A stretch of DNA of 64,000 bases from Dehalococcoidia bacterium (GTDB taxonomy: Bacteria > Chloroflexota > Dehalococcoidia > Bin125): the NCBI GenBank assembly GCA_965116225.1, contig OZ220495.1:149405-213404 (forward strand), read 5' to 3'. The position numbers and the translations under genes were made by a program. The first letter of the stretch is position 1, and each line of letters opens with the position of its first letter. The notes below the pieces were generated by a model. The model saw only the letters and a program-made list of their open reading frames with translations, did not search any database and was not told the DNA's origin. Positions 2,698 through 30,573 of the stretch are shown one piece after another.

Positions 2698-5178
2698 CTA
2701 GTTGCTGATGTAGAGGATGTCCGAGCGGCCGACCGTGAAATCGCTCGAACCCGGCACCATCGTCCCATCCACAACGGAATAGCGAACCCAGGCCGAGCCG
2801 TTCCACAGGTGGACGGCGCTGGCGCCGCGACCCGAGACCAGACCGAAGACCTCCGACGCCGTTGATTCGACATCGCAGGTCCAGGTGGCGAAGCCGCTCA
2901 AGGCGCTGAGACAGTCCAGACTCGCTTCCGCCGCCGGCGCCGCGGGCGCGCCGGCCGTGCTGATCAGCACCTCGACGTCGCGCGCCGGCGTCGAATCGTC
3001 CGAGACCGTGGCTCGCACCACCGCCCGACCGGCCCCGACCACCGTCAGCGTCGTCGTCGCCTTGCCGGCTACCGTCAGCGCCGACGTATCGTCCAGCACC
3101 GCCACCGCATCGTCGTCGCCGACCAGGTCCGACACCCCGAATGCGACCATGGTGCCGTCCGCCACCGCGTTGCCGCCGGCGTCTGTGACCATCACGCTCG
3201 CCGTCACGCCCTGACCAATCTCGGTCGCCGGCACCGGATCCAGCGTCAGATCGACCTCGTCCGCCGCGCCCACGACCATGAGCGTCGTCGACGCCTTCAG
3301 CGTCCCCGACGTCACCTCAAGTGTGTACGTCCCAGCCGCCAGCGCCGATGTGATCGCCGCGTCGATGTCCAGCATCAGACTGCTCATCATCGAACCCGAC
3401 TGCGTCGTCTCGTACTTGCTCTGCGCCACCAGCGCGCCGCCCGACGTCTTCAGCATCGCCGTCACGGTCGGTACCGTAACCGCCGAACCGGAGGCGTCCG
3501 TCGCGTCAAGCATGAACGAAATCTGGTCGCGCGCGTCCGTGCCGCTATCCGCCTTGGTCGCCGCGTTATAGTCGGCCGCCTGGTCGTTGCCGACGTTGTA
3601 GCCCAACACGTTGCTGGGCGCCGCGCCGATGCTCAGCGAGGTGGCCGGACCCGAGAACCGCACCTGGACCGGGTCGGGTCGATGCACCTGACCGCCCGAG
3701 ATCACGGTCGCCGTGACCGTCGCCGTACCCGGCGACGCCGGCGCCTTCAGCTCAATCCGCATCTTGGCCGGCAGTTGGTCGCCCGACGCCCGCAGACTGC
3801 TCAGGTCGAGCTCGCAGGCCGCCGAGTTCTGCGTCTTGCAGTTCGCCGCCTGAGCCGTCTCGGACCCCATCGCGCCGATGCTCTGCGTCGACAGCGTCCC
3901 GCCCGTGGTCGTGACCACAATCGACGAGACCGCGCTCGCCTCCGACGGCTGGTTGCTCCCGCTCAACACCGACAGCGACAGCTCGGTCGTCCCCGTGCCC
4001 GCCATAATCGTGGTCGGCTCGGCCGTGGTCGCGTCGTCGACGTAGCCGTCCTTGGGCGTCGTATCCGTATCGCCGGCCATCGCCTTGCGCGGCGAACTGG
4101 GGCCGAAACTCACCGTCCCCACCTGGTTCGCCGTCGGACTCACCGTCAGCACCTTCGTGACCGTAATCGGCGTCGTGTCCAGCGCGCCCCGCTGTCCCTT
4201 GACCGTCACCGGGTAATCGCCCGCCGGCGTACCCGACGGAACGACGATCTCAATCGAGATGACATTGGTACCGGTCGTGTCCGATACCGCTCCGGGCAGC
4301 ACATTATCGGCGGTGCACCCTTTGCCCACGTAGGCGTATCCATTACTGCCGCTGCTACTGTCCGAACTGGTGCTGCCGTAGTTAACGCGGAAGCAGGTTT
4401 CCGCAAGCGCCTGATAAATCCAGTAGGCAGTTGCAGCCCTGTACGGATATTCAGAGTTCCTGAAGTATGTCTGCGAATATCCGTCGATCAGCGCGCCCAA
4501 CGGAACCCGAAGCACCCGAATGTCGGGGTCGCTATCCTTGTCGTGGTCGGCCGTGGTGATGGACCGGCTGCGATCCCGATCCAGGTAGTCATCGGGAACG
4601 GACTCGGTGCGCACCATGTCGAAGTTCAGACCGGGAACCTCGGCGCTGTTCACCAGGGCCCCGTTCTTGCCCGTCACCTTGAGCTGCACGTTCGTCCCCG
4701 CCGGCACCACGCCGTCGGACTCGCCCACGAACACGACCTCGAGCGACGGTGTCGCCTCCGGCGTGGTCGAGGGCGCCTGGTCGGCCGCATACGTCGTCAC
4801 CGTGATCGTGTAGCGGTTCAGCGCGATCCCGTTGTCGGTCACGACGATCTCGTAGACCGCCGAACCGGTGTCGTCTTCGCTATCGGCGTCCCGATCCGAG
4901 GGGGTGAAGGTGACCACCCGGCCCGACACCGAGGGGCTGTCCGACGCCAGCGTCTTGGTCCCGCCGCTCTTCCAGACCGCGCTGACCGTGCCCGTGCCCG
5001 GAATCGTCCGCGTGCACGGTACCGCCGCCGGCGTGCCGCCCTCTCCCGCCTGGGTCACCGTGCAGGCGGGCAGCGTCGTCTGCGCCTCAGCCGGTTGCGA
5101 GACCGCCGCCAGCGCGAGCGCCAACGCGACGAGCGCTGCCCCCCCCCCAATAATTTGGTTGATTTGGTTGATGCGCAT
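2698..5178 (-). CDS. Secreted Big_1 (invasin/intimin-type Ig-like) repeat surface protein, paralogue A; in frame only from secondary ATG at 5178
   Basis: 827 aa from ATG 5178 (MRINQINQIIGGGAALVALALALAAVSQPAEA, signal peptide). C-terminal ~480 aa nearly identical to the paralogues at 6870 and 23306, with Big_1-like motifs (GVTASVMVTDAGGNAVADGTMVAF). The G10 tract at 5149-5158 encodes GGG. Confidence 0.75.
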   Translation of the reverse strand: MRINQINQIIGGGAALVALALALAAVSQPAEAQTTLPACTVTQAGEGGTPAAVPCTRTIPGTGTVSAVWKSGGTKTLASDSPSVSGRVVTFTPSDRDADSEDDTGSAVYEIVVTDNGIALNRYTITVTTYAADQAPSTTPEATPSLEVVFVGESDGVVPAGTNVQLKVTGKNGALVNSAEVPGLNFDMVRTESVPDDYLDRDRSRSITTADHDKDSDPDIRVLRVPLGALIDGYSQTYFRNSEYPYRAATAYWIYQALAETCFRVNYGSTSSDSSSGSNGYAYVGKGCTADNVLPGAVSDTTGTNVISIEIVVPSGTPAGDYPVTVKGQRGALDTTPITVTKVLTVSPTANQVGTVSFGPSSPRKAMAGDTDTTPKDGYVDDATTAEPTTIMAGTGTTELSLSVLSGSNQPSEASAVSSIVVTTTGGTLSTQSIGAMGSETAQAANCKTQNSAACELDLSSLRASGDQLPAKMRIELKAPASPGTATVTATVISGGQVHRPDPVQVRFSGPATSLSIGAAPSNVLGYNVGNDQAADYNAATKADSGTDARDQISFMLDATDASGSAVTVPTVTAMLKTSGGALVAQSKYETTQSGSMMSSLMLDIDAAITSALAAGTYTLEVTSGTLKASTTLMVVGAADEVDLTLDPVPATEIGQGVTASVMVTDAGGNAVADGTMVAFGVSDLVGDDDAVAVLDDTSALTVAGKATTTLTVVGAGRAVVRATVSDDSTPARDVEVLISTAGAPAAPAAEASLDCLSALSGFATWTCDVESTASEVFGLVSGRGASAVHLWNGSAWVRYSVVDGTMVPGSSDFTVGRSDILYISN
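5149..5158 (-). repeat. Homopolymeric G10 tract (C10 on plus) inside the signal-peptide coding region of paralogue A
   Basis: Counted directly. Homologous tracts are G12 (9272-9283) and G13 (25789-25801). Confidence 0.8.
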
Positions 5179-5472
5179 CGGCGCATGTTGGCGCGCATCC
5201 GCGCAAGTCTCTGAACCATCTCCAGCCCCTTTCCCGAGACCAGTCGCCGCCCCGTCCGCTCGGGGCGCTCTCCGCCCAAGTATCGCACAGGCAATACCGC
5301 GCAAGACCCCGTATTTCGGTTCTTTTCAAGAATTTACGCTCTGGTTACGATCATTCTGCCGATTTCCGCGGCCCGCCTCCGTCGTACTCGCGCTCTGCCC
5401 GGGCCACAAGAGAACGTCATGTCCGCGCCGGGCGCGGCATGACCGTAGGGGGGGCGCGCCCCTCACCCTTCA

Positions 5473-6869: not shown

Positions 6870-9354
6870 TTAGTTGCTGATGTAGAGGATGTCCGAGCGG
6901 GAGACGGCGAAGTCGCTGGAGCCGGGCACCAAGGTTCCGCCGACGACCGAGTAGCGGATCCAGGCGGTACCGTTCCACAGGTGGACGGCGGTCGCGCCCC
7001 GACCGGAGACCAGACCGAAGACCTCGGAGGCCGTCGATGTGACGTCGCAGGTCCAGGCGGCGAAGCCGGTCCAGGCGCTCAGACAGTCCAGACCCACGGT
7101 CTCGGCCGCCGCCGCCGCGGGCGCGCCGGCCGTGCTGATCAGCACCTCGACGTCGCGCTCCGGCGTCGAGTCGTCCGAGACCGTCGCTCGCACGACCGCG
7201 CGACCGGCGCCCACGACCGTCAGCGTCGTCGAGGCTTTGCCGGCTACCGTCAACGCCGTCGTATCGTCCAGCACTGCCACCGCGTCGTCGTCGCCGACCA
7301 AGTCCGAGACGCCGAACGTGACCATCGTGCCGTCCGCCACCGCGTTGCCGTCGGCATCGGTGACCATCACGCTCGCCGTCACGCCCTGACCAATCTCGGT
7401 GGCCGGGACCGGATCGAGCGTCAAATCGACCTCGTCCGCCGCGCCCACGACCATGAGCGTCGTTGACGCCTTCAGCGTCCCCGACGTCACCTCCAGCGTG
7501 TACGTCCCCGCCGCCAGCGCCGATGTCATCGCCGCGTCGATGTCCAGCATCAGATTGTTCATCATCGAACCCGACTGGGTCGTCTCGTACTTGCTCTGCG
7601 CGACCAGCGCGCCGCCCGACGTCTTCAGCATCGCGCTCACGGTCGGCACCGTGACCGCGGAGCCGGAGGCGTCCGTCGCGTCGAGCATGAACGAAATCTG
7701 GTCGCGGGCGTCCATGCCCGCGTCCGCCTTGGTCGCCGCGTTGTAGTCGGCCGCCTCGTCGTTGCCGACGTTGTAGCCGAGCACGTGACTCGGCGCCGCG
7801 CCGATGCTCAGCGAGGTGGCCGGGCCGGAGAACCTGATTTGGACCGGGTCGGGTCGATGCACTGTGCCGCCCGAGATCACGGTCGCGGTGACCATCGCCG
7901 TACCCGGCGTCGCCGGCGCCTTGAGCTGAATGCGCATCTTGGCCGGCAGCGGATCGCCCGACGCCTTCAGGCTGGTCAGGTCGAGCTCGCAGGCAGCCTG
8001 ACCGCCGGTCTTACAGGTCGCCTTCTGGTCGACCAGGGCGCCGGCCGGGCCGATCTGCTCGGTCGACAGCGTGCCGCCCGTGGTCGTAATCACAATCGAC
8101 GAGACCGCGCTGGCCTCGGACGGCTGGTTGCTCGCGCTCAATACCGAGAGCGACAGCTCGGTCGTGCCCGTGCCGGCCATAATCGTGGTCGGCTCCGCCG
8201 TGGTCGCGTCGTCGATGTAGCCATCCTTGGGCGTCGTATCCGTATCGCCGGCCATCGCCTTGCGCGGCGAACTGGGGCCGAAGCTCACCGTCCCCACCTC
8301 GTTCGCTGTGGGGCTGACCGTCAGCGTCTTCGAGATGGGCGTCAGCGGCGTCGGGTCCTTCAGGCTGCGCTGACCGTACAGCGTGACGACGTAATCACCG
8401 GCAGGCGTGCCCCTGGGCACGACGAGCTCCAGCTCGTACTGGGAGGTATGGAGCGCGCCCGCCGTTTCGCCCTCGTTGCAATAGGATGGGGGGTTGGTAT
8501 TGATTGCCTTTTGGCAGCGACCCCGGAGCAGGAACTCGGCTAAGATGTACTGTAACTGCCCACTCCCGTATTTCGGATTGATTCTGCCAGTGAAGTGCGG
8601 CTCGGATGAGGTGTAGATGTCCGAACCGAGCGACGATGAGCGCGTGATCCGCACATCCATCTTGTCATCCACATCGTGATCCTTGTCGTCGACGGTTTCG
8701 TCCCCATTCCGATCCAGCGTGTCGTCGCCCCAGTAGGCGGTCCGCTTGCCGAAGAAAGTCAACCCTCCCGAAACGGTGATCCGCGTCGGCCATGCATCGT
8801 TCTTGGAGACGTACCTGACGATGACGTTCGTGCCCGCGGTGACGACGCCGTCGGACTCGCCCAGGAAGACGAGCTCGAGCGAGGGCGTCGTCGTCGTGGT
8901 CGCCGGCGCCTGGTCGGCCGCGTAGGTGGTCACCGTGATCGTGAAACGGGCCAGCACGATCCCGTTCTCGGTCGCGATGATCTCGTAGACCGCCGAACCG
9001 GTGTCGTCGTCGCTATCGGCGTCCCGATCCGAAGGCGTGAACGTCACCACCTTCCCCGACACCGAGGGGCTGTCCGCCGCCAGCGTGCTGTCCTTGCCGC
9101 TCTTCCAGACCGCGCTGATCGTGCCCGTGGCCGGAATCGTCCGCGTGCAGGGCACTGCCGCGGGGTCGTCGCCCTCTCCCGCCTGGGTCACCGTGCAGGC
9201 GGGCAGCGTCGTCTGCGCCTCAGCCGGCTGCGAGACCGCCGCCAGCGCTAGCGCCAACGCGACTAGCGCTGCCCCCCCCCCCCAATAATTTGGTTGACTT
9301 AGTTGATGCGCGTCGGCGCATGTTGACGCGCATCCGCGCCAGGCTCTTGACCAT
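6870..9354 (-). CDS. Big_1 repeat surface protein, paralogue B; out of frame at the G12 tract in this sequence
   Basis: SD-linked start ATG 9354 (gggaagagagg-N5-ATG, MVKSLARMRVNMRRRASTKSTKLLGGGG). The conserved signal core and mature protein (AALVALALALAAVSQPAEAQTTLPACTVTQ...) are in another frame and are only in frame if the tract is G11 or G14. The stop-to-stop ORF is 6870..9404. Confidence 0.65.
9272..9283 (-). repeat. Homopolymeric G12 tract in the signal-peptide region of paralogue B
   Basis: Counted directly (9 C + 3 C on the plus strand). Confidence 0.8.
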
Positions 9355-9445
9355 CTCGGCCTCTCTTCCCGGTATTCAGTCGCCGCCTCGTCCGTCGGAG
9401 GCATTGTTGCCTATTATCGCACAGCCGAACCGCGATATCGCCGTG

Positions 9446-9454
9446 CCCCCCCCC
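9446..9454 (-). repeat. Second homopolymeric tract (G9) in the conserved 5' promoter-like region of paralogue B
   Basis: Lies between an A/T-rich block (TAAATTTTTTTAC) and a putative extended -10 (TGCGATAAT at about 9408-9416, minus strand). Confidence 0.6.
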
Positions 9455-12096: not shown

Positions 12097-14961
12097 ATGA
12101 TCGACCCAGGAAAGGGGCGAACGATGCCTGGAATACCCAGTGGACGCCTAGTAATGCCGGCGGGAATCCGGATCAGGTTGGCATGCGCGGCGACGCTAGT
12201 CGCGCTAGTCGGCGGGATAGTCGTCGCGGCGCAGCCGGCATCGGCTGCGCCGCCCGCGCCGTATTGGACGAGCGCCAAGGCGACCATCGCGACGATCACG
12301 CTCAACTGGGGCATCAGCGACCCCTCCGGCGTGACCAAGTTTCAGTACCAGCAGAAGGAGGGTGGCGGCAGCTTCGGCGCCTGGACCGACGTCCCCAATT
12401 CCGGCAACGGCACCAGGAGCTTCAAGAAGACCGGCCTGACCCCGGGCACGAGTTACACCTTCAAGCTTCGCGCCGTCGCCGGAGCCACCCCCGGCGCAGC
12501 ATCGGGTACTTGGTCGAAAACGACGGAATACGTACCGTCCCCGGCCTTCTTGTCGAACCAGTTCGTCAGCACCAGCGCCTCGATCACGCTCAAGTGGAAG
12601 TCGGACAGCAGCAACGAGATCACCAAATGGGAGCTTCGCTACAAGCTGAACAGCGCCGGCTCGTTCGGGAATTGGGCGAACGTCGGCGGCGCGGCCACCC
12701 GGACGCACACGGTGAGCGGACTGACGGCCGACACAGAGTATGACTTCGAGCTGCGCGCTGTCGTTGGCAGCACGCCAGGCAGCGCGCAGGCATATACGGC
12801 GTCTACCACTGCCGCAGGGGGAACCCCAACCCCGACTCCAACCCCGCGGGTCACGACGGCCCCGCCGGCGCCGGCCTGGTCGGCCTTACAGGCCACCATC
12901 GCGACGATCACGCTCAACTGGAGTATCAGCGACCCCTCCGGCGTGACCAAGTACCAGTACCAGCAAAAGGCGAGCGGCGGCAGCTGGAGCGCCTGGACCG
13001 ACATCCCCGATTCCAACGCCGGTACCACGAGCTTCACCAGAACCGGCTTGACCCCTGGCACGAGCTACCAATTCAAGCTTCGCGCCGTCGCCGGCGCCAC
13101 CCCCGGCGCAGCATCGAATGCCCGGTCGAGTTCGACCGACTACGTACCGTCCCCGGCCTTCTTGCATGACCAGTTCGTCAGAACCCAGACGTCGATCACG
13201 CTCAAATGGAGCGCGGCGAGCAGCAACGAGATCACCAGGTGGGAAGTTCGCTACAAGCTGAGCAGCGCCGGCTCGTTCGGGAAGTGGGCGAACGTCGGCG
13301 GCGCGACCACTCGGACGCACACGGTGACAGACCTGTCACCCAACACAGAGTATGACTTCGAGCTGCGCGCTCTCGTTGGCAGCGCCTCCAGCGCCGTACG
13401 ACAATACACGACGTCTACAACTGCCGCAGGGCGGACTCCAACACCGACCCCAATACCAACCCCGACCCCAACACCGACCCCAGCGCCGCGGGTCACGGTC
13501 ACGGCCCCGCCAGCGCCGCATTTGGGGAACTTCCAGGCCACCATCGCGACGATCACGCTCAACTGGAGCATCAGCGACAGCGCCGGCGTGACCAAGTACC
13601 AGTATCAGCAAAAAGCGGGCGGCGGCAGCTGGAGCGCCTGGACCGACATCCCCGATTCCAACGCCGGTACCTCGAGCTTCACCAGGACCGGCCTGACCCC
13701 TGGTACGTCTTACCGCTTCAAGCTTCGCGCCGTTGCCGGAGCCACCCCCGGCACAGCATCGATGGAACGGTCGATATCGACGGAACACGTGCCCTCCGGG
13801 GCTTGGTTGTATGACGAATTCGTCAGGACCGGCGCCTCGATCACGCTCAAGTGGAAGTCGGACAGCAGCAACGAGATCGCCAAATGGGAGCTTCGCTACA
13901 AGCTCAGCAGCGCCGGCTCCTACGGGAAGTGGACGAACGTCGGCGACGCGACCACTCGGACGCACACGGTGAGCGGCCTGACGGCCGACACACAGTATGA
14001 CTTCGAGCTGCGCGCTCTCGTTGGCAGCACCCCAGGCCGCGTACAGAGATACACGACGTCTACCACTGCCGCCGCACAGCAGAGTCCGACGAACACGCTC
14101 AAGGTCGTGCGCGACTCCGACCCCAGCGTGATCATGGGCTCGGGGCAGGTCGAATCCGTCTCCGTCGCCGAAGGGGACAGCGAAAACACATCGCTTTCGT
14201 TCCGTCTCACGCTCGACCAGACCCCTTCGCACGACGTCAGAGTCCAGGCGACGGTCTGGGCGCCTCGCGACGCGAACGTTCGAGGACGTTCCGGCGCCGG
14301 GCGCGAGCGCGACTTCCATTATCTACAACGCCATATCACGTTCGCGGCCGGCGCCACTGGACAGGCGTTGAGCAAGCTGCTGACCGTCGAGATCATCGGC
14401 GATACCCGCGATGAAGATGATGAGACGTTCGAGGTTCGGGTCAACAACCTGCACAGCGGCGATGCCCGGGTGCGGCTGCACGGCGGCGGCAAGCGGATCG
14501 CCTTCAACGTCGTGATCAGCGATGACGACGAACCGAACGCCGAACAGGTCTCGGCGACGCCGATCATCGTCAGCGTGACCGACCAGGCCGCCGCGGAAGG
14601 GGATGCGGGCGTGAGCTTCATGGAATTCCCCGTGACGCTCAGCGGTTCGCCGTCTCACGATGTCCGGCTGCAGGTCACGGCCTGGGCCAAGGGGAAAGAC
14701 ACTGTGCGAGGAAGCCGCAAGGGCCCGGGTCGCGACTTCGGCTATCTGCGGCGTCACATCACGTTCGAGGCCGGCGCCAGCGGGGCGGCGCTGACCCAGA
14801 CGATCCGGGTTCGCATCTTCGGCGATCAGGTTGCGGAACCCGACGAGACGTTCGAGGTTCGGGTCAACAACCTGCTGACGCAGGACAAGCGAGTGCAGAT
14901 GGGCGTGGACGGCCGGACCAGGGTGACAGCGACCGGCACGATTCGCAACGACGACGAGTAG
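12097..14961 (+). CDS. Secreted protein with three tandem FN3 pairs followed by two Calx-beta-like domains
   Basis: Signal-like N-terminus (ATLVALVGGIVVAAQPASAAPPAP; likely start at 12124 or 12154). Three ~210-aa repeat units (WTS/ATIATITLNW...YQQK...TGLTPGTSY.FKLRAV). C-terminal units with Calx-beta signatures (DETFEVRVNNL, ISDDDEPNAE). Confidence 0.75.
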   Translation: MIDPGKGRTMPGIPSGRLVMPAGIRIRLACAATLVALVGGIVVAAQPASAAPPAPYWTSAKATIATITLNWGISDPSGVTKFQYQQKEGGGSFGAWTDVPNSGNGTRSFKKTGLTPGTSYTFKLRAVAGATPGAASGTWSKTTEYVPSPAFLSNQFVSTSASITLKWKSDSSNEITKWELRYKLNSAGSFGNWANVGGAATRTHTVSGLTADTEYDFELRAVVGSTPGSAQAYTASTTAAGGTPTPTPTPRVTTAPPAPAWSALQATIATITLNWSISDPSGVTKYQYQQKASGGSWSAWTDIPDSNAGTTSFTRTGLTPGTSYQFKLRAVAGATPGAASNARSSSTDYVPSPAFLHDQFVRTQTSITLKWSAASSNEITRWEVRYKLSSAGSFGKWANVGGATTRTHTVTDLSPNTEYDFELRALVGSASSAVRQYTTSTTAAGRTPTPTPIPTPTPTPTPAPRVTVTAPPAPHLGNFQATIATITLNWSISDSAGVTKYQYQQKAGGGSWSAWTDIPDSNAGTSSFTRTGLTPGTSYRFKLRAVAGATPGTASMERSISTEHVPSGAWLYDEFVRTGASITLKWKSDSSNEIAKWELRYKLSSAGSYGKWTNVGDATTRTHTVSGLTADTQYDFELRALVGSTPGRVQRYTTSTTAAAQQSPTNTLKVVRDSDPSVIMGSGQVESVSVAEGDSENTSLSFRLTLDQTPSHDVRVQATVWAPRDANVRGRSGAGRERDFHYLQRHITFAAGATGQALSKLLTVEIIGDTRDEDDETFEVRVNNLHSGDARVRLHGGGKRIAFNVVISDDDEPNAEQVSATPIIVSVTDQAAAEGDAGVSFMEFPVTLSGSPSHDVRLQVTAWAKGKDTVRGSRKGPGRDFGYLRRHITFEAGASGAALTQTIRVRIFGDQVAEPDETFEVRVNNLLTQDKRVQMGVDGRTRVTATGTIRNDDE
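12210..14100. repeat. Three tandem ~630-bp DNA repeats (FN3-pair units), roughly 85-90% identical
   Basis: Identity assessed by eye; near-identical stretches such as gccaccatcgcgacgatcacgctcaactgg recur at 12290, 12895 and 13535. Confidence 0.8.
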
Positions 14962-20489: not shown

Positions 20490-21659
20490 CTACTTGCTCC
20501 ACCAGCCGTAGTGGCGGCTCTTCGACCATTGTCCGCATTGGTCGGAGTAGGCCTCCACCTGCACGCGCAGATAATGACCGGTGCCAGTCGGCAGACCGGT
20601 CACTGTCTTCGACAGCGTCGCAGCGGCGGAGCGGAAGTACTCGTCCGCGTAATCCACGTCGGTATACGCGTCGAGGTAGACGTAGTAGTTGTACTCGATC
20701 ATTTGCGCCGCGTACTTGGTCGCCTGGTTGCCGCCGGCGCTGACGTAGGCGCAGCGCTTGTCGCGCTTGCCACCGATGGCTCGCGGCTTCTGCCAGCTGA
20801 TCGTCACCTCACCCGACGTGCTCGTATCGACGCTCAGGTCGCGCACCGGAAACGGCGCGCGCAACTTCCGCGTCGCCGGCGCAGACGGATTCGTGTTCGA
20901 CGCCGACGTCCAGAAAAACGCCGTCGCCAACTCCGATTCCTCCCCGCAACCGTCCTCCGACTCCGCGTACACCTCCACGTAATGCCGGTACGGATAGTTC
21001 AACTCGTCCACGTACCAACTCGTACCGCTATCGATGCGCAGCGACTCGGCCACCATCGGCATCGTCGGCGCCACCTCGTACACGCGCACGAAGTAGCCGG
21101 CCGTGGGACAATAGCCGCCGTCGCCGTGGCCGCCGCTCGTCCAGGAAATCAGGGCGCTATCGTAGCCCGCCTGCACCGTCAACCCGGTCGGCGTACTGGG
21201 CAACGTTCCAGCCGCGCCGTACGGCTTGGCGCTGACCGTATCCGAGGCCGGGCCGATCCCGCCTGAGTTCTTGGCCCGCAGCTCGAAGCTGTAGCTCACC
21301 CCGCTGCCGTCCAGCGACCTGACCCGGTAGAAATCCGTCCAGCTGCCGCCGGCCGCAGTCCAGCTCCCCCAGGCGCCACTGCCCTTGCGCTGCCGATATT
21401 CGTAATTGTCGATGGCCCGAACCTCCGCCATCGACGGATGATTCCACTTCAGCGTGACCGATCGCGGCCCCGCAGTGGCGAACAACCCCTCCGGCTTGGT
21501 CAGCGTCACGCTCTGCCCGAGCGCCGACTCCGAGCCGAACGCGACCAGCCCGACCAGCAATCCGGCCATCGCCAGCAGACCCCAACGAGTCAGGAACCGA
21601 GACCTGTGATCAGCACGCAATATGCGAAGAGGGGCGTTGAGCCCTGGTGGGTAAGACAT
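20490..21659 (-). CDS. Secreted fibronectin type III domain protein
   Basis: ATG 21659 (MSYPPGLN...RWGLLAMAGLLVGLVAFGSESALGQS, signal peptide). FN3-like motifs (SVTLKWNHP, YEYRQRKGSGAWGSW, YSFELRAKN). Confidence 0.7.
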   Translation of the reverse strand: MSYPPGLNAPLRILRADHRSRFLTRWGLLAMAGLLVGLVAFGSESALGQSVTLTKPEGLFATAGPRSVTLKWNHPSMAEVRAIDNYEYRQRKGSGAWGSWTAAGGSWTDFYRVRSLDGSGVSYSFELRAKNSGGIGPASDTVSAKPYGAAGTLPSTPTGLTVQAGYDSALISWTSGGHGDGGYCPTAGYFVRVYEVAPTMPMVAESLRIDSGTSWYVDELNYPYRHYVEVYAESEDGCGEESELATAFFWTSASNTNPSAPATRKLRAPFPVRDLSVDTSTSGEVTISWQKPRAIGGKRDKRCAYVSAGGNQATKYAAQMIEYNYYVYLDAYTDVDYADEYFRSAAATLSKTVTGLPTGTGHYLRVQVEAYSDQCGQWSKSRHYGWWSK

Positions 21660-21894
21660 CCGAACATCTCCTGTGCATCTCCAACGATGCCAGCGCCCAA
21701 CCCGAGCGCCCGGCGATAGCGGCACATTAGCCACGACGCCCGCAGCCGATCAAACGCGCCAAGCGATATTCGGTAACCTTCGCCCGAATCGAGTTAAGCG
21801 GAACAAGCTTATCGTCGACCAAATTCGTTATGCTCGCGCCCGGCGCGAGCGCGGCGACGCACCGAGCAGGTGGAACGTCGGCGAGCAGCGCGGT

Positions 21895-22143
21895 TCAGAG
21901 AGCCGATTCAGCATCACGCTGAGCATCGCGCTCATTAAGCCAAACATACCCGCGAACCTGTGCCAAGCCGTCCTGCAATTCCCAGCGGGTCGCCGTCTGC
22001 GAGATCACCCGCGTCAGACCCAGCTCGAGCGCCTGCCGGTAGGCCCGCGCCGACGCCTGATCCATCCCCGTCTCGACCAACCCTTCCTCCAGATCGTCCG
22101 ACCATGACTCAATCACCGGGTCGCGCACTGTCTCAGTTGTCAT
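21895..22143 (-). pseudogene. Copy 2 of the DUF1640-like small gene; TM segment lost by frameshift/deletion
   Basis: MTTETVRDPVIESWSDDLEEGLVETGMDQASARAYRQALELGLTRVISQTATRWELQDGLAQVRG, then out of frame relative to copy 3. Fused directly to the paralogue fragment upstream. Confidence 0.45.
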
Positions 22144-22199
22144 GCCGTCGCCTCCGTCGTCGGCATACCGCATCCCCTGAGCGGCGGCGCTGCGCTGGC

Positions 22200-22500
22200 G
22201 ACGCGAGACCAGACCGAACATCTCCGACGCCGTCGATTCGACATCGCAAGTCCAGGTGGCGAAACCGGTCAAGGCGCTCAGGCAGTCCAGACTCGCCTCG
22301 GCCGGCGTCGCCGACCCGGCCCGCCCGCCGTGCTGATCAGCACCTCGACGTCGCGCTCCGGCGTCGAATCGCCCGACACCGTCGCCCGCACCACCGACCG
22401 ACCGTCGCCGACCACGGTCAGCGCAGCGAAGATTGAGTCGGCGTCGGGCGCGGCGCTGGCGGTCGTTGCGAAGGTTGGGTTGCTAGCGCGAGGGCAGCGT
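22200..22500 (-). pseudogene. Fragment of a fourth Big_1 paralogue (C-terminal region only, frameshifted)
   Basis: Encodes VVRATVSGDSTPERDVEVLISTAG and LDCLSALTGFATWTCDVESTASEMFGLVS in two different frames. Lacks the last ~60 codons and the terminator. Confidence 0.55.
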
Positions 22501-22679
22501 TGGCGACGGTGGCGTCTGTCGAGTAGGCGGCGCCTGGAGTTATGCGATGTCAGTTGCTCAAGTCGCATAGGTTGCGATTGCGTTCCTTGCGGCGGCGTGA
22601 TGCCGACGCCCTACACGGGAATCACGGACCGGCCAAGGACGAGGAAAAGGCCAGCAAGCGAAGTGGCGGCCCGCAGGGC

Positions 22680-23145
22680 TCAGAGCCGAACGAGGAGCGC
22701 GGTCATAAACCCGAACACGCCCACGAACCCCAGACCCACCGTCCAGGTCAACAGATTGAGCCGCTTCTGCATCTCCCCGAAGCGCTGATCCATCTCCCGC
22801 TGCAACTGATCCCGTATCTCCCGCATCTCAGCGCGCAACTGGTCGCCCATTTCCTTCATCTCAGCGCGCAGCTGTTCCCGCATCTCCCCCATCTCCCGAC
22901 GCAGGTCGCCCATCTCCCCGCGAACTTGCGCCAAGCCCTCATGTAGCTCTTGCCGACCCTGCGCCAAGCCGTCCTGCAGCTCCTGCCGCGTTGCTGTCTG
23001 CGAGATCACCCGCGTCAGACCCAGATCGAACGCCTGCCGATAGGCGTGCGCCGATGCCTCATCCATCCCCACCTCGACCAGCCCCCTCCTCCAGATCGTC
23101 CGACCATGCCTCAATCACCGGGTCGCGCACTGTCTCAGTCGTCAT
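22680..23145 (-). CDS. DUF1640-like small coiled-coil protein with C-terminal TM, copy 3 (frameshift at a G5 run near the 5' end)
   Basis: From ATG 23145 the frame breaks after EEG (gaggagggggctggtc; copy 2 has one fewer G). Downstream frame gives MDEASAHAYRQAFDLGLTRVISQTATRQELQDGLAQ...LRAEMKEMGDQLRAEMREIRDQLQREMDQRFGEMQKRLNLLTWTVGLGFVGVFGFMTALLVRL. Confidence 0.5.
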
Positions 23146-23305: not shown

Positions 23306-25845
23306 CTAGTTGCTGATGTAGAGGATGTCCGAGCGGCCGACGGCGAAGTCGCTGGAGCCGGGCACCATCGTCCCATCGACCACCGAGTAGCGGACCCAGG
23401 CGGAGCCGTTCCACAGGTGGACGGCGCTGGCGCCCCGACCCGAGACCAGGCCGAACACCTCCGACGCCGTCGATTCGACATCGCAGGTCCAGGTGGCGAA
23501 GCCGCTCAAAGCGCTGAGACAGTCCAGGCTCACCGCCTGGGCCGGCGCCTCGGGCGCGCCCGCCGTGCTGATCAGCACCTCGACGTCGCGCGCCGGCGTC
23601 GAGTCGTCCGAGACCGTGGCGCGCACCACCGCGCGACCGGCCCCGACCACGGTCAGCGTCGTCGAGGCTTTGCCGGCTACCGTCAGCGCCGACGTATCGT
23701 CCAGCACCGCCACCGCATCGTCGTCGCCGACCAGGTCCGACACCCCGAACGCCACCATGGTGCCGTCCGCCACCGCGTTGCCGTCGGCATCGACGACCAT
23801 CACGCTCGCGGCGACGCCCTGACCGATCTCGGTCGCCGGCACCGGCTCCAGCGTCAGATCGACGCTGTCCGCCGCCCCCACGACTATGAGCGTGGTTGAC
23901 GCCTTCAGCGTCCCCGACGTCACCTCCAGCGTGTACGTCCCCGCCGCCAGCGCCGATGTGATCGCCGCGTCGATGTCCAGCATCAGACTGCTCATCATCG
24001 AACCCGACTGCGTCGTCTCGTACTTGCTCTGCGCCACCAGCGCGCCGCCCGACGTCTTCAGCATCGCGCTCACGGTCGGTACCGTAACCGCCGAACCGGA
24101 GGCGTCCGTCGCGTCAAGCATGAACGAAATCTGGTCGCGCGCGTCCGTGCCGCTATCCGCCTTGGTCGCCGCGTTGTAGTCGGCCGCCTCGTCGTTGCCG
24201 ACGTTGTAGCCCAACACATTGCTGGGCGCCGCGCCGATGCTCAGCGAGGTGGCCGGACCCGAGAACCTGATCTGGACCGGGTCGGGTCGATGCACCGTGC
24301 CGCCCGAGATCACGGTTGCGGTCACCGTCGCCGTACCCGGCGACGCCGGCGCCTTGAGCTGAATCCGCATCTTGGCCGGCAATGGATCGCCCGAGGCCCG
24401 CAGACTGGTCAGGTCGAGCTCGCAGGCCGCCTGGCCGTTGCTCTTGCACTTTGCCTTCTGGTCGACCAGGGCGCCGGCCGGGCCGATCTGCTCGGTCGAC
24501 AGCGTCCCGCCCGTGGTCGTGATCACAATCGACGAGACCGCGCTCGCCTCCGACGGCTGGTTGCTCCCGCTCAACACCGACAGCGACAATTCCGTCGTGC
24601 CCGTGCCCGCCATAATCGTGGACGGCTCCGTTGTCGACGCGTCATCGATGTAGCCGTCCTTGGGCGTCGTATCCGTATCGCCCGCCACCGCCTTGCGCGG
24701 CGAACTGGGGCCGAAACTCACCGCCCCCACCTGGTTCGCCGTCGGACTCACCGTCAGCACCTTCGTGACCGTAATCGGCGTCGCGTCAACCGCGCCCCGC
24801 TGTCCCTTGACCGTCACCGGGTAATCGCCCGCCGGCGTCCCCGACGGAACGACGATCTCAATCGAGATGACGTTGGTGCCGATGGTCTTGTTGGCGCCCC
24901 CTACCTGTCCGGGGAGCGGATTGTCGCTGTCGGCGCCCGAGCACCCCGCGCCCAGGTAACTGCCGTCGCTCGAACTGCTCGTACTGATGTACTCGACTAC
25001 GCCGCCAACAGTCCTTGAGCCGCCGTAGTTATAGCGGAAGCAGGTTGCCTCAAGCGCCTGATAAATCCAGTAGCTGGCGCCCGACCTGTATGGGAATTCC
25101 TGATTGGAGACTTCGATCTTTGACCCATCCCTCGACTCGATGTACGGACCTAACGCAACCCGAGCCACGCGCACATCGGGGTCGCTATCCGCGTCATGGT
25201 CGGCGGTGGTCCAGGAGCGGCTGAGGTCTCGATCCAGATAGTCATCGGGAACGTACTCGGTGCGCAGGAAGTCGAAGTGCAGACCGGAAGCCGCGATGCT
25301 GTTCACCTGGGCGCCGTTCTTGCGGGTCACCTTGAGCTGCACGTTCGTGCCCGCCGGCACCACGCCGTCGGACTCGCCTACGAACACGATCTCCAGCGAG
25401 GGGGTCGTCTCCGGTGTGGTCGAGGGCGCCTGGTCGGCCGCGTAGGTGGTCACCGTGATCGTGTAGCGGTTCAGCGCGATCCCGTTGTCGGTCACGACGA
25501 TCTCGTAGACCGCCGAACCGGTGTCGTCGTCGCCGGTCACCCGGTCCGACGGCGTGAAGGTCACCACCCGACCCGACACCGAGGGGCTGTCCGACGCCAG
25601 CGTCTTGGTCCCGCCGCTCTTCCAGACCGCGCTGACCGTGCCCGTGCCCGGAATCGTCCGCGTGCAGGGCACTGCTACCGGCGTGCCGCCATCCCCAGCC
25701 TGGGTCACCGTGCAGGCCGGCAGCGTCGTCTGCGCCTCAGCCGGCTGCGAGACCGCCGCCAGCGCAAGCGCCAACGCGACGAGCGCTGCCCCCCCCCCCC
25801 CAATAATTTGACGCGCATGCGCGCAACGATGTGAGTCATCTTCAT
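23306..25845 (-). CDS. Big_1 repeat surface protein, paralogue C; out of frame at the G13 tract
   Basis: SD-linked start (aaagggag ATG AAG ATG at 25845/25839; MKMTHIVARMRVKLLGGGG) is in frame with the mature protein only if the tract is G11 or G14. The stop-to-stop ORF is 23306..26116. Confidence 0.65.
25789..25801 (-). repeat. Homopolymeric G13 tract in the signal-peptide region of paralogue C
   Basis: Counted directly (2+10+1 C on the plus strand). Confidence 0.8.
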
Positions 25846-25931
25846 CTCCCTTTCGCAGGATCCGTCTCCGCCCCGAACGGCCGAGGCGCACTTGGCAAGT
25901 ATCGCACGGCGTCGCATGTCGTATCGCCGTA

Positions 25932-25943
25932 CCCCCCCCCCCC
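25932..25943 (-). repeat. Second homopolymeric tract (G12) in the conserved 5' region of paralogue C
   Basis: Same position as the G9 tract of paralogue B, next to AAATTTTTTGAC and upstream of TGCGATACT. Confidence 0.6.
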
Positions 25944-26102
25944 GTCAAAAAATTTACCCGTGATTTACAATCAACGAACCCGTAACCCGTCGATTGACGT
26001 GATCCATCTCCGTCATGCCCGGCTGGCCCGGGGCTCTCGCTTGCAAGGCGGGGAACAAGACGCCCGCGCCCGGCGCGGGCATGCATGACAGGAGGCGGCG
26101 TT

Positions 26103-29964: not shown

Positions 29965-30573
29965 ATGACCGACGATAATGACGCGCCGATTTCAACACCG
30001 CAGACAACCCGCGACATGCGCGCGCAGGGAATGCCTGAGCGACCGCTGCTGGCGACCGATCCGCCGCTGCCCGCCGACGACTTCGCGCCCGCGCTCTGGG
30101 TTCCGCTGACGCGCGCGTTGCGCGCGCGGCGGCGGCTGATCCGCATGGCCGAGTCGCTGCCGGCCGCGCAGTGGTTGCGCCAGTCGGCGGCGCCGAATTG
30201 GTCGCGGCGCGACCTGCTCGCCCACCTGGCCGCCTCGGATCGGCGCTACCACGACGCGCTGATCGCCGCCCTCAACCAGGCGCCGCTCGAGAATTGGCGA
30301 CCCGACCCGGCCCAGCCAGGGCCCGATCTGGATCGCGCCAACGCGCTGGGCGCCGGGCGCTATGCAGGTCAGTCGGTCGAGCGGTTGGCGGCGCATCTGC
30401 GGGCCGGAGCCGACAAATCGGTCACGCTCCTGGCGGCCTTGAGCGAGGAACAGGTGCTCATGCGAATGGGCTTCGCCGGCAACGCCCTCTCGCTGCTGGA
30501 AGCATGGGCGTCGCACGATAACGATCACGCCGACGACATCATCAACGGACCCAGAATGATGCGCACCCTCTGA
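29965..30573 (+). CDS. DinB/YfiT-like (mycothiol maleylpyruvate isomerase N-terminal domain-like) protein
   Basis: WSRRDLLAHLAASDRRYHDALIAAL, then H-rich helical segments. Confidence 0.5.
   Translation: MTDDNDAPISTPQTTRDMRAQGMPERPLLATDPPLPADDFAPALWVPLTRALRARRRLIRMAESLPAAQWLRQSAAPNWSRRDLLAHLAASDRRYHDALIAALNQAPLENWRPDPAQPGPDLDRANALGAGRYAGQSVERLAAHLRAGADKSVTLLAALSEEQVLMRMGFAGNALSLLEAWASHDNDHADDIINGPRMMRTL

Follow-up and report, generated by a model that had tools for sequence, protein, structure and literature searches.

Coding poly-G tract of paralogue C

Within a 64,000-nucleotide stretch of the genome of a Dehalococcoidia bacterium (contig OZ220495.1, positions 149,405 to 213,404; referred to as the window), three paralogous genes on the minus strand, here called A, B and C, carry long runs of guanine inside the codons of their signal peptides. 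These genes are probably slipped-strand contingency loci, in which the coding tract would serve as a translational switch and a second, non-coding tract found upstream of some of the genes would serve as a modulator, probably close to the promoter. The original prediction had already proposed slipped-strand contingency loci, and this proposal gains support from the frame logic, the selection acting on the genes, their codon usage, a mixture of ON and OFF alleles in sister genomes, one pair of orthologues that differ in tract length, and relatives whose tract has been interrupted. The tracts exceed chance expectation, toggle the reading frame and vary in length between conserved flanks, while the genes encode a predicted surface product and their OFF alleles are under selection, as is characteristic of contingency loci. 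From the frame logic, the selection and the comparative variation we infer that the tracts switch.

The evidence is clearest in paralogue C, where a C13 run on the plus strand at 25789-25801 corresponds to G13 in the signal-peptide codons of the minus-strand gene. Direct reading of the minus strand at the start of the gene gives aaagggagATGAAGATGACTCACATCGTTGCGCGCATGCGCGTCAAATTATTG(G13)CAGCGCTC, which reproduced exactly the tract and wording initially reported. At 25837..25854 (minus strand) the sequence shows a ribosome-binding site, AAAGGGAG, followed by in-frame ATGs at 25845 and 25839, which start the signal peptide MKMTHIVARMRVKLL; the Shine-Dalgarno spacing of the ATG at 25839 is better than that of the ATG at 25845. 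The TTG of leucine codon 15 is completed by the first G of the run. As assembled, translation from ATG 25845 yields MKMTHIVARMRVKLLGGGGQRSSRW... and stops after 46 aa. The 70-aa dead end reported earlier (25705..25917, minus strand) is present in the list of open reading frames (ORFs) and is this same 46-aa frame prolonged to an upstream ATG. Beyond the tract, the mature-frame ORF of paralogue C (23306..25788, minus strand) runs intact for 827 codons, from AALVALALALAAVSQPAEA|QTT... to ...DILYISN and a stop, one base off the frame of the start codon.

Resizing the tract of paralogue C in silico gave products of 845 aa at G11, 35 aa at G12, 46 aa at G13 and 846 aa at G14, and so bore out the statement that the mature frame requires G14 or G11. 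Both OFF frames of the tract end at stops within 29-55 codons. The in-frame product begins with a canonical n-h-c Sec signal peptide composed of a basic n-region, three to four glycines, the core AALVALALALAAV and the end SQPAEA|QTT, with the tract positioned between the basic n-region and the hydrophobic core. As read from the assembled sequence, paralogue C is OFF in the majority genotype at G13. Equivalent in-silico resizing demonstrated that unit changes in tract length toggle an intact ORF in A, B and C as well as in three loci of a related genome (L001, L002 and L006 of OZ242034.1, described below).

Paralogues A and B

The tracts of paralogues A and B occupy the codon position seen in C (TTG followed by Gn), in agreement with the earlier claim that each paralogue places a glycine-coding tract at the same point of the signal peptide. 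Paralogue A has G10 at 5139..5148 (minus strand; ON at G11), with its ATG at 5219 and a mature ORF at 2698-5138. Paralogue B has G12 at 9272..9283 (minus strand; ON at G11 or G14), with its ATG at 9354 and a mature ORF at 6870-9271. In both genes the Shine-Dalgarno-linked ATG is out of frame with the mature protein, and checking these frames in silico upheld the earlier description of A and B as OFF. The further claim that the three lengths belong to different frame classes did not hold, as G10 and G13 are both 1 mod 3 and G12 is 0 mod 3. Only the two OFF classes are therefore represented, and none of A, B and C has the ON length of 2 mod 3.

Translation of the mature frame from other starts was also considered (MRINQINQIIGGG in A, the ATG at 9404 in B, and in C a frame that is open upstream to 26116, making a 936-aa ORF with a GTG near 25893 noticed by eye). 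None of these starts has a Shine-Dalgarno sequence and two of the frames cross non-coding motifs; we regard them as spurious, a product of the long open frames to be expected at 65% GC.

Database gene calls for the out-of-frame paralogues (P0001, P0002, P0004-P0007 and P0011) have arbitrary, displaced starts. These are of three types, namely a TTG past the tract (MALALAAV...), an internal ATG (MRINQINQIIGGG...) or an upstream ATG (MPPTDEAATEY...). The window regions concerned are 5139-5219, 9272-9404 and 25774-25801. The phase-variable architecture of these paralogues is hidden by their current annotation.

Long G/C runs compared with chance

Background G/C runs in the 65%-GC window reach a maximum of 7, as in the G7 at 2604-2610 and at 5448-5454, against which six runs of at least 9 and four of at least 12 stand out. 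The expected number of runs of at least 12 is 0.13 under a model of independent, identically distributed bases and 0.007 under a first-order Markov model, and the earlier judgement that such runs are not random (about 0.3 expected, at least four present) is thereby strengthened. Five of the six long runs fall at two homologous positions of the three paralogues; the sixth is upstream of a DinB-family gene. Poly-G/C runs are generally under-represented in prokaryotic genes according to published surveys (PMC2831843). Because GGG makes up only 17% of the glycine codons in the genes of the window (three consecutive GGG codons, P ~0.005), the run is not a by-product of glycine coding and must be kept or regenerated at the nucleotide level.

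Gene family, selection and predicted product

The mature-frame ORF of paralogue C is identical (100%) to database protein P0001. Together with 14 further paralogues (59-85% identity) encoded on one contig of 2,601,622 bp, it forms a family of at least 15 copies. The paralogues are ~820 aa long, and the window copies A, B and C are 74-85% identical overall. Mean identity among the 15 is 80-90% in the N-terminal part and in the C-terminal 500 residues, and falls to a mean pairwise 17-46% in a hypervariable block at approximately residues 145-300 of P0001 (24875..25342 of paralogue C, minus strand). Sliding-window comparison of the DNA revealed a mosaic of identities (for example, 90% between B and C where A and B share 66%), a pattern consistent with recombination between copies.

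Out-of-frame copies in a redundant family could simply be dead duplicates undergoing decay. All three window copies are out of frame, and 21895-22568 holds a fragment of a fourth copy that has plainly decayed, as decay would have it. The copies themselves argue otherwise. Each has a single lesion, located at the tract and followed by more than 800 intact codons; dN/dS (the ratio of nonsynonymous to synonymous substitution rates) between the three OFF copies is 0.13-0.5 in conserved parts and 0.22-0.28 over the C-terminal 500 codons; and the Shine-Dalgarno sequences, start codons and upstream motifs are conserved. Because of this purifying selection and the single lesion at the tract we do not consider the OFF copies pseudogenes, and decay is a very improbable account of them. 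The decayed fragment (minus strand) represents the 3' end of a further paralogue (residues ~712-789, 83-88% identity) and is fused to a partial duplicate of a 144-aa coiled-coil/transmembrane gene (22680..23114) that lies downstream of C. Its structure resembles the scar that an intra-family recombination or deletion would leave.

Searches of the paralogues against Pfam and NCBIfam returned no significant match, while one relative, P0022, has a weak precomputed match to Big_1. The AlphaFold model is an all-beta string of sandwich domains with a mean pLDDT of 66, and Foldseek with this model retrieved tandem immunoglobulin (Ig) and macroglobulin-like arrays. The product is accordingly predicted in silico to be a secreted surface protein with a tandem Ig-like array that resembles adhesins and S-layer proteins. 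A profile search of 1.8 billion cluster representatives found 366 relatives, which share the C-terminal ~500 residues, a highly conserved ...DILYISN end and Sec signal peptides; GGG in the signal peptide is confined to the few closest of them. These cluster representatives (P0019-P0166) also share a conserved C-terminal domain of ~80 aa that ends in ...DILYISN and may be an undescribed surface-anchoring or sorting domain. The signal peptides of the family are near-identical (MRLSHLTALAVMIALVGAMFVA..., MIGTLARKRTNL...). Two distant relatives, L007 and L009, are each followed directly downstream by a conserved gene for an acidic product of 200 aa whose C-terminus has a transmembrane segment.

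Upstream non-coding tract and promoter-region motifs

A second tract, absent from the original prediction, is found in the non-coding region upstream of two of the three paralogues. Paralogue C has G12 at 25932..25943 (minus strand), 86 nt 5' of the ATG, and paralogue B has G9 at 9446..9454 (minus strand), 91 nt 5' of the ATG; paralogue A has no upstream tract and carries ACGGGGTC at the homologous site. The tract is flanked 5' by GTAAATT(T)n, with a conserved YGTGCGATAMT motif about 27-29 nt further 3'. In paralogue C the A/T-rich GTAAATT motif (25951..25957, minus strand) adjoins the tract, and the second motif reads CGTGCGATACT (25898..25908, minus strand). Within the window, both motifs occur only upstream of A, B and C. 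Calculated from coordinates, GTAAATT and YGTGCGATAMT are separated by 38 nt in B, which has G9, by 42 nt in C, which has G12, and by 41 nt in A, which lacks the tract.

Reading the conserved motifs by eye, we consider TGC-GATAMT (TGC-GATACT in C) a possible extended -10 element. If so, the upstream tract would precede the -35 position and not fall within the -35/-10 spacer, and it is probably promoter-proximal; the TTGAYT that follows the tract in OZ242034.1 (below) would place it likewise. An alternative promoter ending in TAAATT on the 5' side of the upstream tract, which would entail reiterative transcription on the G run, was rejected as it has no -35 element at a workable spacing. A scan of four upstream regions for intrinsic terminators found none, leaving a terminator role for the T-run beside the upstream tract unsupported.

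Tract-length variation in related genomes

The nearest genomes of the paralogue family are metagenome-assembled genomes (MAGs) of Dehalococcoidia. Named relatives of the GMP synthase encoded in the window, at 63-68% identity, come from 'MAG: Dehalococcoidia bacterium' and 'Chloroflexota bacterium' records. Tract lengths were compared over 10 loci in three Dehalococcoidia genomes, these being the window genome, OZ242034.1 (a Dehalococcoidia MAG of 2.46 Mb with ~46-50% protein identity) and ERZ25068678 contig_2 (2.49 Mb). Coding tracts range from 9 to 13 nt, with one locus interrupted, and upstream tracts from 9 to 19 nt. In the two other genomes the coding tract occupies the signal-peptide position that it has in A, B and C. 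Three loci of OZ242034.1 are ON with a coding G11, each paired with a different upstream tract: G19 in L002 (P0016), G13 in L006 and G11 in L016 (P0022). A fourth, L001, is OFF with a coding G12 and an upstream G15, and a fifth, L003, has an upstream G18 and an interrupted coding tract (CTGGCGGGGGCA), which places it permanently in frame. The layout in this genome comprises GTAAATT-type A/T-rich repeats, the tract and a TTGAYT 6-8 nt 3' of it, with the ATG 89-92 nt past the tract. At L017 in ERZ25068678 contig_2, both genes are OFF, the minus-strand gene with a coding G12 and an upstream G11 and the plus-strand gene with a coding G9 and an upstream G14.

L016 has its orthologue in the minus-strand gene of L017, with 92% nucleotide identity over 900 nt including the neighbouring gamma-glutamyltranspeptidase (GGT) gene. 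Within this pair the upstream tract is G11 in both, whereas the coding tracts are G11 (ON) and G12 (OFF), exactly one G apart. A comparison of lengths between independent assemblies had been recommended with the original prediction. Lengths do differ in this sister lineage, but no second assembly of the species itself was found: an exact 26-nt pattern search of metagenome contigs gave 0 matches, and exact-protein look-ups for P0001, P0003, P0019, P0023 and an ATPase of the window gave no record, the clusters being single-member. Within the window genome, the annotated N-termini of the 15 paralogues, from which (rather than from DNA) the states were counted, comprise two in-frame copies (LLGGGA; P0003 and P0009), 7-8 displaced starts and five in which the tract is absent or interrupted. 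In the distant relatives L007-L009 (36-48% identity), obtained by a protein-pattern scan of metagenomes, there is no homopolymer of 8 or more, and the tracts are therefore taken as a lineage-specific addition and not a family-wide trait.

Several smaller observations concern these genomes. Around the GGT gene, one sister genome has the paralogues in tandem, whereas in the other they diverge and GGT is truncated. P0025, for its part, has a chimeric 5' region in which L002-like sequence is combined with L006-like sequence; the rearrangement and the chimera suggest inversion or recombination between paralogues. L017 contains a G8 at 410-417, inside the coding region ~70 nt past the coding tract, where the L016 counterpart is interrupted (GGGCGGGG), and this may be an example of the birth or death of a tract. 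At L005 in a fourth Dehalococcoidia MAG (CBDCDO010000001.1), a G9 is present at 4339-4347, ~1.2 kb downstream of a distant paralogue.

Two further explanations were weighed. In the first, the out-of-frame alleles are constantly but more weakly expressed through RNA-polymerase slippage or ribosomal frameshifting, and tract length acts as a rheostat instead of an ON/OFF switch. Ten to 13 identical bases are slippery for polymerase and ribosome alike (the documentation being fullest for A/T runs), poly-G allows tRNA-Gly to re-pair in whichever frame, and the OFF-frame peptides are short and unconserved, with nothing that argues for a function of their own. Against recoding, no stimulatory structure or conserved recoding signal is present, and neither Rfam at its gathering threshold nor a tRNA scan, both run over the entire window, returned a known RNA element that explains the tracts. 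Moreover, the related genomes have exact in-frame G11 alleles together with interrupted, fixed alleles, a pattern typical of phase variation at the DNA level. We consider recoding unlikely, although it and DNA slippage are not mutually exclusive.

In the second explanation, the tracts are real and their lengths miscalled through the sequencing or polishing chemistry, every copy in truth being constitutively expressed from an in-frame tract (G11 or G14). The errors that persist in long-read consensus are chiefly those of long G/C homopolymers, a change of 1 nt necessarily turns any OFF length into an ON length, none of the three window copies is ON, and the contig name ctg6947_128x_c in the sister genome suggests a long-read metagenome assembler. 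Conversely, the same kind of assembly yielded an exact in-frame G11 at L002, L006 and L016, and P0003 and P0009 of the window genome appear in frame from their annotated LLGGGA N-termini. The upstream tracts span 9-19 nt among paralogues, well past a one-base error. The window consensus is also generally sound, since its housekeeping genes are full-length and match Pfam models end to end. A constitutive gene would be expected to shed a mutable tract, as the interrupted relatives did, and here GGG-only runs are kept despite the codon bias. Whatever the true individual lengths, G runs of 10-13 nt that are conserved in a 5' coding region are intrinsically hypermutable. A consensus artefact is thus improbable, though less so than recoding.

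The reading of these genes as contingency loci also has several points to its disadvantage. A long-read metagenome consensus may miss the exact length of a 13-nt homopolymer by one base, and the OFF call rests on that consensus. That A, B and C are all OFF is expected for a contingency family, yet it is also what miscalls would give. Heritable and reversible variation within the organism is a prediction drawn from assembly consensus lengths. The promoter role of the upstream tract is likewise conjectural, and a sigma-70 consensus promoter scan of four upstream regions called none. The sole link to a host is one relative of 48% identity from an Illumina assembly of an Aplysina aerophoba sponge metagenome. 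A sponge-symbiont lifestyle is nevertheless plausible. The window encodes a large secreted protein with six FN3 domains and Calx-beta (12097-14961, plus strand) and a second FN3 protein (20490-21734, minus strand); 'eukaryote-like' domains of this kind have been reported as enriched in sponge symbionts (PMC5649159).

Proposed mechanism and comparison with known systems

If the genes are contingency loci, Gs would be gained or lost by replication slippage (slipped-strand mispairing) at the coding poly-G, and only lengths of 2 mod 3 (G11, G14) would connect the Shine-Dalgarno-linked ATG with the mature protein, the three to four glycines encoded by the tract being tolerated within the signal peptide. 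A second layer would be formed by the non-coding poly-G 86-92 nt 5' of the ATG, with the GTAAATT element on one side and the probable core promoter on the other. Transcription would probably be tuned by the length of this tract, as it alters how far, and on which face of the helix, an A/T-rich UP-like element stands from the promoter. If the paralogues switch independently, a population would show shifting subsets of antigenically or adhesively distinct surface proteins, with phage or a host such as a sponge as the likely selective pressure.

The closest parallel is found in the opa genes of Neisseria, ~11 paralogues with CTCTT repeats in the signal-peptide coding region. Both systems are multigene families of hypervariable surface proteins with mosaic identity between copies that is consistent with recombination, and in both a repeat in signal-peptide codons gates the mature frame, each copy apparently doing so independently in the present case. 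The genes described here differ in having a G homopolymer instead of a pentamer, an additional upstream tract, and an ~820-aa Ig-like array instead of an 8-stranded outer-membrane barrel, and they belong to Chloroflexota instead of Proteobacteria. Given the homopolymer repeat, the lack of a Pfam match and the Ig-like fold, they are not members of the Neisseria Opa family and are opa-like only in their working.

Two tracts per gene are known from Helicobacter pylori sabA (poly-T at the promoter and CT repeats in the 5' coding region) and Neisseria meningitidis porA (poly-G at the promoter and poly-A in the coding region). There, as proposed here, a promoter-near tract tunes transcription while a coding tract gates translation. 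Unlike sabA and porA, both tracts are poly-G in the present genes, the upstream tract is apparently 5' of the -35 instead of within the -35/-10 spacer (its position being uncertain), and the arrangement is repeated across a gene family and three genomes. Upstream poly-G is also found at the tpr genes of Treponema pallidum, and the promoter poly-C of Bordetella pertussis fim2/fim3 is included in a homopolymer survey (PMC1891110). These systems resemble ours in having a G/C homopolymer upstream of surface-protein genes, with a length that varies between paralogues or strains. In them the tract modulates transcription and its position relative to the promoter was mapped experimentally, whereas ours was placed by reading motifs. 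In promoter switches of the Bordetella fim and Neisseria porA/opc type, the homopolymer separates the -35 and -10 hexamers and its length determines the spacer.

Poly-G/C contingency genes are well described in Campylobacter jejuni, Neisseria and Haemophilus, hmbR and hpuAB being examples (PMC3786947; reviewed for Campylobacter in PMC8355987). Shared features include G/C homopolymers of ~8-13 nt in 5' coding or intergenic positions, an ON state in one length class of three, and long tracts in excess where the background otherwise shuns such runs. Those bacteria are host-restricted pathogens of low to mid GC content in which switching is experimentally established, whereas the present organism is uncultured, has 65% GC and would switch by analogy. 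At the level of fold only (pLDDT 66), the string of beta-sandwiches and the Sec signal peptide recall intimin/invasin Big adhesins and S-layer proteins. The proteins described here have no Pfam match above threshold and no significant NCBIfam match, and so fall outside the intimin/invasin Big-domain families; they also lack a beta-barrel anchor and end in the family-specific C-terminal domain with ...DILYISN.

No account of phase variation in Dehalococcoidia, in Chloroflexi or in sponge symbionts came to light in full-text literature searches. To our knowledge, phase-variable contingency loci are textbook material for a few host-adapted pathogens and are essentially undescribed in Chloroflexota or in uncultured environmental or symbiotic bacteria. 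The mechanism itself is known; what is new is its phylum, the kind of protein concerned and a dual tract conserved throughout a gene family. We regard the chances as evenly divided that these genes constitute the first contingency system of Chloroflexota, with two-layer poly-G control of at least 15 hypervariable Ig-like surface proteins, perhaps in marine-sponge symbionts. If true, they would be a case of surface variation as bet-hedging, in a lineage for which metagenomes are the only source, and, should the organisms be sponge symbionts, phage- or host-driven stochastic surface variation in a non-pathogenic, slow-growing lineage. Tract-length distributions could then be drawn from long-read data that already exist, and ON/OFF patterns set against phage load or compared from one host individual to the next. 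Homopolymer 'errors' in MAGs should in that case not be polished away blindly, as the displaced starts of P0001, P0002 and P0004 illustrate.

A further run in the window stands apart from the gene family. This C13 (29916-29928, plus strand) is intergenic, 36 nt 5' of the ATG of a DinB/MDMPI-family gene (29965..30573, plus strand), with poly-C on the sense strand and ATATATTC directly 3' of it. It may be another promoter-associated hypermutable tract, belonging to an unrelated gene.

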